DNA from: Escherichia coli
GTDB lineage: Bacteria; Pseudomonadota; Gammaproteobacteria; Enterobacterales; Enterobacteriaceae
NCBI RefSeq assembly: GCF_003334385.1
Contig: NZ_QOWN01000009.1
Strand: one strand, 5' to 3'
DNA length: 64,000 nucleotides
A program made the translations under genes and the position numbers. Shown one piece after another: positions 10,460-45,102 of the stretch (position 1 is the stretch's first letter; each line of letters starts with the position of its first letter). The notes beneath the pieces were generated by a model. The model did no database searches. It saw only the letters and a program-made list of their open reading frames with translations, and was not told where the DNA came from.

Positions 10460-11455
10460 ATGAAAAAGAAAAGACCCGTACTTCAGGATGTGGCTGACCG
10501 TGTAGGCGTGACCAAAATGACGGTCAGCCGTTTTTTACGCAACCCGGAGCAGGTTTCCGTCGCTCTACGCGGCAAGATTGCCGCGGCTCTTGATGAACTG
10601 GGCTATATTCCCAATCGTGCGCCCGATATCCTCTCTAACGCCACCAGCCGGGCGATTGGCGTCCTGTTACCTTCTCTCACCAACCAGGTTTTCGCGGAAG
10701 TATTACGCGGAATCGAAAGCGTCACCGACGCGCACGGTTATCAGACCATGCTGGCGCACTACGGTTATAAACCGGAAATGGAGCAAGAACGCCTCGAATC
10801 CATGCTCTCCTGGAATATCGACGGCCTGATCCTCACCGAACGTACCCACACGCCGCGCACCTTAAAGATGATTGAAGTGGCGGGTATTCCCGTGGTGGAA
10901 CTGATGGACAGCAAGTCGCCATGCCTTGATATCGCCGTCGGTTTTGATAACTTTGAAGCAGCACGCCAGATGACCACTGCCATTATTGCTCGCGGGCATC
11001 GCCACATTGCCTATCTCGGCGCACGTCTCGACGAACGTACTATCATCAAACAGAAGGGATACGAACAGGCGATGCTGGATGCAGGCCTGGTGCCATATAG
11101 CGTGATGGTTGAGCAATCTTCTTCTTACTCTTCCGGTATTGAACTGATTCGCCAGGCGCGGCGGGAATATCCGCAGCTGGATGGCGTGTTCTGTACGAAT
11201 GATGACCTGGCGGTCGGCGCGGCGTTTGAATGTCAGCGTCTGGGGTTAAAAGTTCCTGACGATATGGCGATTGCCGGTTTCCACGGTCATGACATTGGTC
11301 AGGTGATGGAGCCACGACTTGCGAGCGTGCTGACGCCGCGTGAGCGGATGGGCAGTATTGGCGCTGAACGCCTGCTGGCGCGTATTCGTGGCGAATCTGT
11401 GACACCGAAAATGTTAGATTTAGGTTTCACCTTGTCACCGGGCGGATCTATTTAA
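10460..11455 (+). CDS. gntR: gluconate repressor GntR (LacI family)
   Basis: 331-aa ORF with an N-terminal LacI-type HTH (VLQDVADRVGVTKMTVSRFL) and a periplasmic-binding-like fold; upstream of gntK-gntU. Confidence 0.93.
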   Translation: MKKKRPVLQDVADRVGVTKMTVSRFLRNPEQVSVALRGKIAAALDELGYIPNRAPDILSNATSRAIGVLLPSLTNQVFAEVLRGIESVTDAHGYQTMLAHYGYKPEMEQERLESMLSWNIDGLILTERTHTPRTLKMIEVAGIPVVELMDSKSPCLDIAVGFDNFEAARQMTTAIIARGHRHIAYLGARLDERTIIKQKGYEQAMLDAGLVPYSVMVEQSSSYSSGIELIRQARREYPQLDGVFCTNDDLAVGAAFECQRLGLKVPDDMAIAGFHGHDIGQVMEPRLASVLTPRERMGSIGAERLLARIRGESVTPKMLDLGFTLSPGGSI

Positions 11456-11533
11456 GCCCACAAATTTGAAGTAGCTCACACTTATACACTTAAGGCATGG
11501 ATGGATATTGCTTCTGATATTGTCCGGCTGGAC

Positions 11534-11564
11534 AATGTTACCGATAACAGTTACCCGTAACATT
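11534..11564 (+). promoter_or_regulatory. GntR operator(s) in the gntKU promoter
   Basis: aatgttaccgataacagttacccgtaacatt contains two overlapping ATGTTAC-N-GTAACAT-type palindromic half-sites typical of GntR operators. Confidence 0.55.
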
Positions 11565-11593: not shown

Positions 11594-12121
11594 TTGAGCA
11601 CGACTAACCATGATCACCACATTTACGTCTTGATGGGCGTATCGGGCAGCGGCAAATCTGCGGTCGCCAGTGAAGTGGCGCATCAACTTCATGCCGCGTT
11701 TCTTGATGGCGATTTCCTCCATCCACGGCGCAATATCGAAAAAATGGCGTCTGGCGAACCACTGAATGACGACGATCGCAAACCGTGGTTGCAGGCGCTG
11801 AACGACGCCGCGTTTGCTATGCAGCGCACTAATAAAGTGTCGCTGATCGTCTGTTCTGCATTGAAAAAACACTATCGCGACTTGCTGCGTGAAGGTAATC
11901 CGAATCTCTCTTTCATCTATTTGAAAGGCGATTTTGATGTGATTGAAAGCCGCCTGAAAGCGCGCAAAGGCCATTTCTTTAAAACCCAAATGTTGGTGAC
12001 GCAGTTTGAAACGCTGCAGGAGCCGGGTGCGGACGAAACCGATGTACTGGTGGTGGATATCGATCAACCGCTGGAAGGTGTTGTGGCAAGCACCATTGAG
12101 GTTATTAAAAAAGGCAAATAA
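11594..12121 (+). CDS. gntK: thermoresistant gluconokinase GntK
   Basis: P-loop GVSGSGKS; 175 aa if started at TTG 11594 (MSTTNHDHH); ORF-track start 11573 is an alternative. Confidence 0.9.
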   Translation: MSTTNHDHHIYVLMGVSGSGKSAVASEVAHQLHAAFLDGDFLHPRRNIEKMASGEPLNDDDRKPWLQALNDAAFAMQRTNKVSLIVCSALKKHYRDLLREGNPNLSFIYLKGDFDVIESRLKARKGHFFKTQMLVTQFETLQEPGADETDVLVVDIDQPLEGVVASTIEVIKKGK

Positions 12122-12124
12122 GTA

Positions 12125-13465
12125 GTGACTACATTAACGCTTGTTTTAACAGCAGTAGGGTCTGTTTTACTGCTGCTGTTTTTAGTCATGAAGGCGCGTA
12201 TGCACGCTTTCCTGGCTTTAATGGTGGTGTCCATGGGGGCTGGCCTTTTTTCTGGTATGCCGCTCGATAAAATCGCAGCGACGATGGAAAAAGGGATGGG
12301 AGGCACCCTCGGCTTCCTGGCGGTGGTTGTCGCCCTGGGAGCTATGTTTGGCAAGATCTTACATGAAACCGGCGCAGTCGATCAGATTGCCGTCAAAATG
12401 CTCAAATCCTTCGGTCACAGCCGCGCGCATTATGCCATCGGCCTTGCGGGGCTGGTCTGTGCGCTACCGCTGTTCTTTGAAGTGGCGATAGTTCTGCTGA
12501 TTAGCGTTGCTTTCTCAATGGCGCGCCACACCGGTACGAACCTGGTGAAGCTGGTAATCCCATTATTTGCAGGCGTGGCGGCAGCGGCGGCATTTCTGGT
12601 GCCTGGACCAGCGCCGATGCTGCTGGCATCGCAGATGAATGCCGACTTTGGCTGGATGATCCTGATTGGCCTGTGTGCGGCAATTCCGGGAATGATTATT
12701 GCCGGGCCGCTGTGGGGTAACTTCATCAGCCGTTACGTTGAGCTGCATATTCCTGACGACATCAGCGAACCGCATCTCGGCGAAGGCAAAATGCCATCTT
12801 TCGGATTCAGCCTGTCGCTGATCCTGCTGCCGCTGGTGCTGGTAGGGCTGAAAACCATTGCCGCGCGTTTTGTGCCGGAAGGATCAACTGCTTACGAATG
12901 GTTTGAGTTTATCGGTCATCCGTTTACCGCGATTCTGGTTGCTTGTCTGGTGGCGATTTACGGTCTGGCAATGCGTCAGGGCATGCCAAAAGACAAAGTG
13001 ATGGAGATTTGCGGTCACGCGCTGCAACCGGCGGGGATCATTCTGCTGGTGATTGGTGCGGGCGGCGTGTTCAAACAGGTGCTGGTTGACTCTGGCGTAG
13101 GTCCGGCACTGGGCGAAGCGTTAACCGGCATGGGCCTGCCGATTGCTATCACCTGCTTCGTGCTGGCAGCTGCAGTGCGCATCATTCAGGGTTCTGCCAC
13201 CGTAGCCTGTTTAACGGCGGTAGGACTGGTGATGCCGGTTATTGAACAACTGAACTACTCCGGTGCGCAAATGGCGGCGCTGTCGATTTGTATCGCTGGT
13301 GGTTCGATTGTTGTCAGCCACGTTAACGACGCCGGTTTCTGGTTGTTCGGTAAATTTACCGGCGCGACCGAAGCCGAAACGCTGAAAACCTGGACCATGA
13401 TGGAAACCATCCTCGGCACTGTCGGTGCCATCGTTGGGATGATTGCGTTCCAGCTGTTGAGTTAA
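12125..13465 (+). CDS. gntU: low-affinity gluconate transporter GntU (GntP family)
   Basis: 446-aa polytopic membrane protein, paralogous to the gntT product in this window; immediately downstream of gntK. Confidence 0.9.
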   Translation: MTTLTLVLTAVGSVLLLLFLVMKARMHAFLALMVVSMGAGLFSGMPLDKIAATMEKGMGGTLGFLAVVVALGAMFGKILHETGAVDQIAVKMLKSFGHSRAHYAIGLAGLVCALPLFFEVAIVLLISVAFSMARHTGTNLVKLVIPLFAGVAAAAAFLVPGPAPMLLASQMNADFGWMILIGLCAAIPGMIIAGPLWGNFISRYVELHIPDDISEPHLGEGKMPSFGFSLSLILLPLVLVGLKTIAARFVPEGSTAYEWFEFIGHPFTAILVACLVAIYGLAMRQGMPKDKVMEICGHALQPAGIILLVIGAGGVFKQVLVDSGVGPALGEALTGMGLPIAITCFVLAAAVRIIQGSATVACLTAVGLVMPVIEQLNYSGAQMAALSICIAGGSIVVSHVNDAGFWLFGKFTGATEAETLKTWTMMETILGTVGAIVGMIAFQLLS

Positions 13466-41300: not shown

Positions 41301-42617
41301 TCAAATCACCATATTCAGCAGCAGACAGCCTACCAGACCGCACACCGAGATAATGGTTTCCAGCATCGACCAGGATTTGATGGTCTCGCCGATAGTCAGG
41401 TTAAAGTACTCTTTGAACAGCCAGAAGCCCGGATCGTTCACATGAGAGAAAATCACACTACCGGAACCAACCGCAATAACCATCAGCTCCGGGCTAACAC
41501 CCGTCGTTGCAATCAGCGGTGCCGCGATACCACCCGCAGTGATTGCCGCAACGGTTGCGGAACCCAGCGCGATACGCAGTACGGCAGCAATCGACCAGGC
41601 CATCAGCAGCGGAGAAATGTTGGTTTCGTGCATCATGGAAGCAATGTATTTGTCCACGCCGCTGTCTACCAGCACCTGCTTGAACGCACCGCCACCACCG
41701 ATGATCAACAGCATCATCGCAATGATTTTGATGGAAGAAACCAGCGTGTCGTTAATCTGATCCATTGAACGACCACGGTTTAGACCAAAGGTGAACATCG
41801 CAATCAGCACGGCAATCAGCGTTGCCATTACCGGGTCACCGAGGAACTCCGCTACCGGCAGGAAAGCGTGACCTTTCGGCAGGATCATTTCGGCAATCGC
41901 ACGCATCGCCATCAGTACTACCGGCACCAGAGAGGTCCAGACGCTGACGCCAAAGCTCGGCATCTCTTCTTCGCTGAAGGTTTTCGCGCTGTAGAGACCT
42001 TCCGGAATTGGCTTATCGATACCTTTCAACACGCGAGCGTAAACCGGACCGGCGAGAATCACGGTCGGGATTGCCAGAATAGTACCGTACAGCAGGGTTT
42101 TACCCATATCGGCATTGAAAATGGTGGCAATCGCAGTCGGACCCGGATGCGGTGGCAGGAAGCCGTGGGTCACAGACAGTGCAGCCGCCATTGGTACACC
42201 AACATACAGCAGTGGAATATTCGCAGAAGCCGCGATGGTAAACACCAGCGGCAGCATCAGCACAAAGCCCACTTCATAGAACAGGGCAAAACCAACGGTA
42301 AAACCGGTCAGTACCACCGCCCACTGGATGTGTTTTTTACCAAATTTGGCAATCAGCGTGGTGGCGATACGTTGTGCGCCACCGCAGTCTGCCAGCATTT
42401 TGCCCAGCATTGCGCCAAAACCCATGATCAGGGCAAGGCTACCGAGCGTCCCGCCGACACCGGCTTTGATGGAGCCAATAACTTTATCCAGCGGCATTCC
42501 TTGCATTAATCCAACAGCAAGCGCCACGAGGACGAGAGCGATGAAGCCGTTCATTTTGAAGCGGATCATCAGGAGCAACAACAAGATTACACCGATAGCA
42601 ACAATGACTAATGGCAT
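41301..42617 (-). CDS. gntT: high-affinity gluconate transporter GntT (GntP family)
   Basis: 438-aa polytopic membrane protein, paralog of the gntU product. Confidence 0.93.
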   Translation of the reverse strand: MPLVIVAIGVILLLLLMIRFKMNGFIALVLVALAVGLMQGMPLDKVIGSIKAGVGGTLGSLALIMGFGAMLGKMLADCGGAQRIATTLIAKFGKKHIQWAVVLTGFTVGFALFYEVGFVLMLPLVFTIAASANIPLLYVGVPMAAALSVTHGFLPPHPGPTAIATIFNADMGKTLLYGTILAIPTVILAGPVYARVLKGIDKPIPEGLYSAKTFSEEEMPSFGVSVWTSLVPVVLMAMRAIAEMILPKGHAFLPVAEFLGDPVMATLIAVLIAMFTFGLNRGRSMDQINDTLVSSIKIIAMMLLIIGGGGAFKQVLVDSGVDKYIASMMHETNISPLLMAWSIAAVLRIALGSATVAAITAGGIAAPLIATTGVSPELMVIAVGSGSVIFSHVNDPGFWLFKEYFNLTIGETIKSWSMLETIISVCGLVGCLLLNMVI

Positions 42618-42758
42618 GATTTACCTGGCCTTTCATTTGTTATGGGTAACGTCAATTTTCTGACGACAAACTCTAATTATCCCAATCGGGAACAGAGATA
42701 TTGCGGCACCACGACTGATACCCACTAAAACTAATTATTGTAGTCAGATGTCAGGAGT

Positions 42759-42793
42759 ATGTTTGGTACCCATGTGAATGATACGGGTAACAT
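42759..42793 (-). promoter_or_regulatory. GntR operator-like palindromes in the gntT promoter
   Basis: Minus strand reads atgttacccgtatcattcacatgggtaccaaacat, an ATGTTACC / GGTACCAAACAT-type repeat related to the gntK operator at 11534-11564. Confidence 0.5.
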
Positions 42794-42920
42794 CTGGCGT
42801 TTGAGAATCACCAGAGCGGGGTAAATTTAAATTATGAGAGGTTGGTCATATTATCGCGGGGAAACGAACCGAGGATTTGACAAAGCAATGCTGCGCCAAC
42901 GTCTGGCATATGTTCAACGT

Positions 42921-42976
<56 letters not shown>

Positions 42977-43552
42977 TTAGTAGTAGGAGTGTTCGCCGCG
43001 CTGGTGTTCGGTGAGATCGCGCACACCTTTCAGCTCCGGGAATTCGTTCAGCAGCTGCTTCTCGATCCCTTCTTTCAGCGTCACATCGACCATGGAACAA
43101 CCGTTACAGCCGCCGCCAAATTGCAGAATGGCGTAACCGTCTTCGGTGATTTCCATCAGCGAAACGCGACCACCGTGACCAGCAAGCTGTGGGTTGATCT
43201 GCGACTGCAGCATATACTCCACGCGCTCCATCAGCGGTGCATCGTCTGCCACTTTACGCATTTTGGCGTTCGGGGCTTTCAGCGTTAACTGGGAACCCAA
43301 CTGGTCGGTAACAAAATCGATCTCTGCATCTTCCAGGTATGGTGCGCTTAACTCATCAACATACGCGGTCAGCAGGTCAAATTTCAGGGCTGTGTCGGTG
43401 GCTTCCACAGCGTCCGGCGGACAATAAGAAACGCCACATTCAGCGTTAGGCGTGCCAGGGTTAATCACAAATACGCGGATTTGTGTCCCTTCTTCCTGAT
43501 TTGCCAGCAGTTTGGCAAAGTGCGCTTGTGCAGCATCGGAAATACGGATCAT
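42977..43552 (-). CDS. nfuA: Fe-S cluster carrier protein NfuA
   Basis: 191 aa; C-terminal Nfu domain with a CxxC motif (GGCNGC). Confidence 0.93.
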
Positions 43553-43610
43553 AGTAATGGCCTAATAGTTGACTATTTTAGTTGGTTATAATACGCCCAT
43601 CATCGAGGCT

Positions 43611-45102
<1,492 letters not shown>

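Follow-up and report, generated by a model that had tools for sequence, protein, structure and literature searches.

GntR operators at the gntKU and gntT loci of Escherichia coli: an overlapping pair and a split pair of 16-bp sites

The window considered here is a stretch of 64,000 nucleotides of the Escherichia coli chromosome (100% identity) that carries the gene for the gluconate repressor GntR and two regulated gluconate loci. The repressor gene, gntR (10460-11455, plus strand), encodes a protein of 331 amino acids. The first regulated locus is the gntK-gntU operon (11594-13465, plus strand), which is composed of gntK (11594-12121, with a TTG start) and gntU (12125-13465). The second is gntT (41301-42617, minus strand), which encodes the high-affinity gluconate transporter. 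The GntR protein scores 776 bits on the NCBIfam equivalog NF011563 (cut-off 433) over residues 1-331 of 331, and GntT matches NF011560 with 929 bits; gntK and gntU were identified by the equivalogs NF008583 and NF007781 (gntK/gntU). All four proteins lie above the equivalog cut-offs, and the annotation (RefSeq for gntR) agrees. The first-pass annotation of this DNA was made without database searches, and it was right in its account of the genes: GntR is encoded where it was placed, and the paralogous transporters GntU and GntT, which are 37% identical, are both present. The distance between the gntKU and gntT loci, given there as about 30 kb, measures 31 kb.

In the annotation of a near-identical strain, the gene order is ugpC ... 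yhhW-gntR-gntK-gntU ... glg ... glp ... rtc ... malT/malPQ-gntT-nfuA-gntX ... feo ... ompR/envZ ... mrcA. The part of the window between 10300 and 13600 is matched in 5,425 of 5,426 complete E. coli genomes, in several of them at 100%.

Despite its name, the E. coli GntR belongs to the LacI/GalR family and not to the GntR family. Pfam places a LacI-type helix-turn-helix (PF00356) at residues 8-52, together with Peripla_BP_1/3/4 matches (PF00532) of a periplasmic-binding-type sugar domain that runs to residue 330, and did not find the GntR/FadR winged-helix domain (PF00392) in this protein. A 'GntR-family' consensus is therefore the wrong matrix for scanning this DNA. The Bacillus subtilis GntR and the GntR/FadR superfamily share with the E. 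coli protein the common name, gluconate as the inducer and the repression of gluconate kinase and permease genes; however, the B. subtilis protein has the winged helix PF00392 instead of the LacI helix-turn-helix, and both its fold and its operator motif are unrelated. The name is thus a trap, and motif models of the GntR family are of no use here.

The promoter region of gntK contains a 31-bp inverted repeat, AATGTTACCGATAACAGTTACCCGTAACATT (11534-11564), in which 26 of the 31 positions are self-complementary. Its arms (11534-11548 and 11550-11564) are 87% complementary and are separated by 1 nt. An inverted repeat had been noted here before, and it stands with one correction, namely that it is composed of two 16-bp sites which are offset by 13 bp and have 3 bp in common. 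Operator 1, ATGTTACCGATAACAG (11535-11550, plus strand), has one mismatch to the search pattern and scores 18.05 bits with an external matrix, while operator 2, CAGTTACCCGTAACAT (11548-11563, plus strand), has two mismatches and scores 16.49 bits.

At gntT, the first-pass annotation had described a single 35-bp inverted repeat at 42759-42793, of which only the right-hand part holds. The interval as a whole is self-complementary at 12 of 35 positions, and its left part (42759-42774) at 0 of 16, with no match to the motif. The true operator is the right 16 nt, O1, ATGTTACCCGTATCAT (42778-42793, minus strand), which has one mismatch to ATGTTACCNNTAACAT and is the top match of the window with 20.21 bits. 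The 3' half of O1, TATCAT (42783-42778), is also the gntT -10 hexamer. A second operator, O2, ACGTTACCCATAACAA (42637-42652, minus strand; two mismatches, 19.62 bits), had been missed. It is found in the 5' leader, 141 bp downstream of O1 (centre to centre), where it starts 35 nt ahead of the gntT ATG and lies 19 nt in front of it. Among 31 Enterobacteriaceae sequences, O1 is invariant at all 16 positions (100% identity), and O2 has 98% column identity against approximately 51% in its flanks. The left 19 nt of the interval previously assigned to the repeat are 48% identical, compared with 51% for the non-coding background.

The specificity of the motif was examined in two ways. A pattern search of the window with ATGTTACCNNTAACAT, allowing up to two mismatches and using 100 shuffles as the control, found matches at only four places; these give 6 strand-matches, compared with 0.26 expected, and none of the 100 shuffles reached 6. 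The second approach used the external matrix, which was built from three E. coli K-12 sites (two at edd, of which one is upstream of the gene and the other just within its 5' end, and one in the idnD-idnK intergenic region). All three are located outside the window, and circularity is thereby avoided. With this matrix, the two gntT operators and the gntK pair are the top 4 of the approximately 64,000 positions (20.2, 19.6, 18.1 and 16.5 bits), whereas the next best score is 13.5 bits; by shuffling, 0.09 sites are expected to reach the score of the weakest operator. A matrix scan of the kind that had been proposed for these sites bears them out. All four sites conform to the GntR operator type, a 16-bp dyad of the form ATGTTACC-NN-GGTAACAT, the consensus of which is also written as ATGTTACCCGTAACAT or ATGTTACC-NN-TAACAT.

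Beyond these four, the external matrix found no GntR site above the shuffle level in the window. Two weaker matches of 13.5 bits, 59152-59167 inside hslO and 5422-5437 inside an Hcp-like gene, were rejected: the best score in shuffled sequences averages 13.4 bits, and since both also lie in coding DNA they are attributed to chance. The spacer between yhhW and gntR contained no GntR-type site by pattern or matrix scan, hence there is no sign that gntR is autoregulated.

The default promoter scan called no promoter on the gntK strand, and the gntK promoter was therefore placed from cross-species conservation. The predicted -35 hexamer is TTGCTT (11508-11513, plus strand; a 3/6 match) and the predicted -10 hexamer is GACAAT (11531-11536, plus strand), the last two bases of which are the first two of operator 1. 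In 8 lineages TTGCTT and the exact 17-nt spacing are conserved, with a variable spacer sequence, and the -10 hexamer is kept at a fixed position as GACAAT, GAAAAT or CTAAAT. Given this conservation of position, the gntK -10 hexamer would end inside operator 1; the predicted transcription start is near 11543. Further upstream is a CRP-like site, TTTGAAGTAGCTCACA (11465-11480), with one mismatch to TGTGAN6TCACA and a centre at about -70.5 relative to the predicted start. In 8 of the 9 orthologous gntR-gntK spacers the site recurs at an unchanged distance of 62.5 bp from the operator start, and the site may well function in CRP binding.

On the gntT strand, the promoter scan gave a sole promoter-like match, TTCTCA-18-TATCAT. 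Its predicted -35 hexamer TTCTCA (42802-42807, minus strand) is surrounded by the conserved block GTGATTCTCAA. With a predicted start near 42771, the centre of O1 falls at -14.5, that of O2 at about +126.5 and the ATG at +154. A CRP-like site with two mismatches to TGTGAN6TCACA (42835-42850), itself in a conserved block, is centred at -71.5 from this start, and a site with no more than two mismatches occurs at an equal distance from O1 in 11 of the 15 genera checked. Judged from these sequence features, the gntK and gntT promoters appear to follow one design, with a CRP-like site near -71, a weak -35 hexamer and a -10 hexamer overlapped by an operator. Activation of the gnt genes by CRP has been reported (PMC2230225).

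Conservation of the gntK layout was followed in nine orthologous gntR loci, all with yhhW-gntR-gntK synteny and with GntR identities from 97% down to 74%. Operator 1 is conserved in Salmonella, Mangrovibacter, Buttiauxella and others. The 13-bp offset is kept in 7 of the 9 loci, which represent six distinct lineages: Salmonella, Cedecea, Mangrovibacter, Buttiauxella, strain YMB-R22 and one metagenomic lineage. A single, more symmetric site takes the place of the double operator in two more distant gntR-gntK lineages. This arrangement belongs to a known class of overlapping double sites of LacI-family regulators, spaced by approximately 13 bp, described by Ravcheev et al. 2014 (PMC4052901). The gntK pair resembles that class in its exact and conserved 13-bp offset, and gntKU is named there as the experimentally supported example. 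According to the same paper, the overlapping layout is conserved in more than half of the GntR-regulated operons of gamma-proteobacteria, and its authors discuss that LacI-family dimers placed 13 bp apart cannot interact in the known structures. It also attributes a functional demonstration of the overlapping gntKU sites to Tsunedomi 2003a.

In three of the gntR-gntK loci compared, from Buttiauxella and two metagenomic Enterobacterales, gntU is missing downstream of gntK and unrelated genes are found in its place. Given that the operator and promoter are retained in these loci, the low-affinity transporter seems to be a dispensable part of the operon.

When a single genome of each species was scanned for gntT, 80 GntT loci were obtained. 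The split layout of O1 and O2 is confined to the Enterobacteriaceae, of which 30 loci are in nfuA-gntT-malQ synteny. In Erwiniaceae, Yersiniaceae, Pectobacteriaceae and Budviciaceae, gntT has two overlapping sites with a 14-bp offset (e.g., ATGTTACCGGTATCATGATACCGGTAACAA), which sets them apart from the class spaced by approximately 13 bp, and has no GntR site at -35. In many genomes of these four families gntT is clustered with gntR and gntK. Three GntT-like loci from Firmicutes contained no such motif, as expected if a different regulator is in charge there.

The clustered loci (Yersinia, Serratia, Dickeya, Rahnella, Pragia and others) have either gntR followed by divergent gntK and gntT, or the order gntR-gntT-gntK, the latter in Serratia grimesii and S. 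proteamaculans; in E. coli the regulon is instead split into two loci 31 kb apart. In seven of them, from Yersiniaceae, Budviciaceae and Brenneria, a near-perfect CRP-type palindrome, GATGTGAcnnnnATCACA, follows approximately 7 nt past the double operator on the gntT side. The CRP-like site of E. coli lies upstream of O1 instead, so either the promoter geometry or the divergent gene served must differ.

The sites in the window are not new. They are published and functionally validated GntR operators, down to the exact 16-mers, and in comparison with the E. coli K-12 operators of the GntI system (Izu et al. 1997; Porco et al. 1997; Peekhaus & Conway 1998; Tsunedomi et al. 2003a) the sequences, the repressor, the genes and the organism are identical, with no difference found. 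Operator 1 of gntK, ATGTTACCGATAACAG, mediates a GntR-dependent response to gluconate in a heterologous system, where deletion of the site or a 2-bp insertion at the operator centre abolishes the GntR-dependent activity; the consensus ATGTTACCCGTAACAT is given in that paper with a citation of Porco 1997 (PMC10450161). The gntT operator O1, ATGTTACCCGTATCAT, for which Peekhaus & Conway 1998 is named as the source, confers repression that depends on GntR and gluconate in a purified cell-free system (bioRxiv 10.1101/2023.01.10.523462). Reporters of the gntK, gntT and idnK promoters are repressed more than 5-fold by GntR, and inactivation of gntR de-represses gntT, gntK, gntU and idnK (PMC13386637). 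As PMC2230225 relates from Peekhaus & Conway 1998, GntR binds the gntT promoter in vitro and 1 mM gluconate abolishes this binding. The type of experiment that could have refuted the first-pass annotation has therefore already been performed, with a positive outcome.

The earlier proposal that one repressor, GntR, acts through related operators at both loci agrees with the sequence, with the comparisons between species and with the literature, and nothing contradicts it. There is every reason for high confidence that the four sites serve GntR as operators in the GntI gluconate regulon of E. coli. The sites themselves, their specificity and conservation, their overlap with the promoters and the family of the repressor come from the present analysis, whereas binding, induction by gluconate and activation by CRP are taken from the literature.

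Three other readings of the palindromes deserve consideration. The paralogue IdnR (GntH) could be their main regulator in place of GntR. It is the closest paralogue, and GntR itself scores 402 bits on the IdnR model; the site between idnD and idnK, ATGTTACGCATAACGT, is of the same type. The two proteins cross-recognise sites (PMC4052901), and, in that paper's account of Tsunedomi 2003a/b, GntH is a negative regulator of the GntI genes and IdnR sites are among those recognised by GntR. However, gntR directly precedes the gntK operators and the synteny is conserved, inactivation of gntR de-represses gntT, gntK and gntU while restored gntR represses the reporters (PMC13386637), and purified GntR is cited as binding gntT DNA (PMC2230225). 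Since expression is reported to be constitutive in gntR mutants, IdnR is refuted as the primary explanation, and the chance that it is the main regulator is very small. Cross-binding by IdnR adds to the control by GntR and does not replace it. Smaller still is the probability that the palindromes are fortuitous and have no regulatory role, a reading which may be practically dismissed. Short AT-rich palindromes are indeed common in promoter regions, and weaker matches occur in coding sequence at 5422-5437 and 59152-59167. Nevertheless, the shuffled controls never reach the observed count, four sites are observed with the external matrix where 0.09 are expected, and the sites form invariant footprint islands across genera; conservation and statistics together already refute chance.

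The remaining reading concerns gntT only, where 42759-42793 might be one extended 35-bp operator in which ATGTT...GGTACC on the left pairs with GGTAACAT on the right. The ATGTT at 42759-42763 does mirror the AACAT at 42789-42793, and GGTACC is nearby. Against this stand the low self-complementarity of the interval, the left part devoid of dyad symmetry and of any motif match, and the contrast between a left arm conserved at the background level and an invariant O1; in addition, the repeat finder did not report this pair of arms, and a 2-bp change in half-site spacing is enough to destroy the function of a GntR operator (PMC10450161). The left arm (42759-42774) was also considered as a decayed second overlapping site of the outgroup type. 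Its gapped score against the outgroup second site is 6, which 12.7% of random 26-mers equal, and thus at the level of chance; other Enterobacteriaceae score lower and the arm is unconserved, so the idea of a relic was abandoned. An extended operator is accordingly very improbable, if anything slightly more so than a leading role for IdnR. The four 16-bp GntR operators are retained in what follows.

The positions of these operators suggest how repression would work. As a dimeric repressor of the LacI/GalR type, GntR recognises the 16-bp dyads. At gntKU, the operators (11535-11563) extend from within the -10 hexamer across the predicted start, so bound GntR would be expected to keep RNA polymerase out. 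At gntT, O1 holds the -10 hexamer, and GntR bound there would likewise occlude the -10/+1 region, with O2 in the leader probably adding to the repression. Once gluconate is bound, GntR leaves the DNA, and both promoters are then activated by cAMP-CRP, presumably from the sites at about -71. We infer the contributions of O2 and of the overlapping gntK pair from their placement, as we do the transcription starts.

How O1 and O2 of gntT act together is less certain. In the original gntT study a loop model was reportedly proposed, in which GntR would bridge the two operators in a DNA repression loop, as in lac O1-O2 or gal OE-OI. The layout does resemble these systems: in lac (O1 with O2/O3) and gal (OE-OI), as in gntT, regulators of the same family use a promoter operator and an auxiliary one approximately 100-150 bp away in the transcribed region. 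Both gntT operators are strongly conserved, one at the promoter and the other 141 bp downstream, and the gntT promoter reporter is repressed by GntR. In contrast to the lac and gal loops, the spacing between O1 and O2 is not conserved in phase. Ten different spacings (65 and 133-148 bp) occur in the 30 Enterobacteriaceae loci, and for helical repeats of 10.5-11.3 bp no preference for a helical phase was detected among these few and related species (mean resultant length 0.09-0.13, compared with approximately 0.28 for random phases). The distance from O2 to the ATG is fixed at 34-35 nt in the same loci. Furthermore, GntR ends at residue 331, with its domain match running to residue 330, and thus has no room for the C-terminal tetramerisation helix of LacI. 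GalR, which has no such tail either, forms loops with the help of HU, and this precedent means that the missing tail leaves scope for bridging.

The spacing result leans against a rigid, phase-locked loop and towards an O2 that would act independently of O1, although the small number and the relatedness of the species leave scope for flexible or protein-assisted bridging. A loop between O1 and O2 is on balance unlikely. Somewhat less doubtful, yet still tentative, is the proposal that O1 and O2 are not a loop pair and that O2 acts alone, for example as a transcription roadblock ahead of the ribosome-binding site, the relocation of gntT having been accompanied by a rewiring of its operators. 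The fixed distance of O2 to the ATG, combined with a distance to O1 that drifts through all phases, fits an O2 acting alone. Given that the split layout is found only in Enterobacteriaceae, where gntT lies away from gntR-gntK, and the 14-bp double site in families where gntT is clustered with these genes, relocation and operator rewiring may have gone together.

Two loci, from Escherichia sp. ESNIH1 and Pseudescherichia vulneris, have a natural O1-O2 spacing of 65 bp with both operators intact. These variants are a ready test case for the importance of the spacing.

As a discovery, these operators carry little weight, since they belong to a well-characterised carbon-metabolism regulon of E. 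coli. Their value is rather that of a positive control, in that a reader without tools correctly picked out one operator family at two loci separated by 31 kb. GntR operators also serve as parts for gluconate-inducible synthetic circuits, for which the exact boundaries of the 16-mers, the 13-bp overlapping arrangement, the position of O2 and the freedom of phase between the two gntT operators are of practical use in design.

The edd sites, ATGTTACCGGTAAAAT and TTGTTACGCGTAACAA, and the idnD-idnK site, which is shared between IdnR (GntH) and GntR, are 16-bp dyads of the type found in the window and belong to the same pair of regulators. These sites of the GntII and Entner-Doudoroff genes differ from those in the window in that they lie outside it and are single, rather than an overlapping pair offset by 13 bp, and in that IdnR is an activator there. 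In E. coli K-12 (locus L002), TTGTTACGCGTAACAA is a perfect 16-bp palindrome (4578-4593) located 12-27 nt inside the edd coding sequence, while ATGTTACCGGTAAAAT (4800-4815) is upstream of the gene, so that edd has one upstream and one downstream site, like O1 and O2 of gntT.

Several features of the window outside the operators were also recorded. The genes just upstream of gntT, nfuA and gntX (42977-44357), are annotated as encoding Fe-S biogenesis and DNA-utilisation proteins; nfuA is the gntY of the older literature, in which gntX also has its gnt name. Pattern and matrix scans found no GntR-type site near these two genes. In the DNA separating nfuA from the gntT promoter, at 42895-42954, there are two imperfect palindromes, one with the arms GCCCGAAATGACGCT and AGCGTCGCATCGGGC, which are 80% complementary, and an overlapping one of 18 nt. 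They look like a REP-type extragenic palindrome; the terminator scan made no call in this interval.

In comparison with the near-identical strain M217, asd ends at an identical coordinate in the window while malQ and gntT are displaced by 11 bp, which points to a small indel between 15411 and 39106, in the glg-glp-rtc-mal stretch. At the place of 5369-7367 of the window, the annotation of M217 has, between yrhA and yhhY, a gene for an Hcp1-family type VI secretion effector adjacent to an IS1 transposase. Read from the M217 annotation, this looks like an accessory insertion within an otherwise core region.
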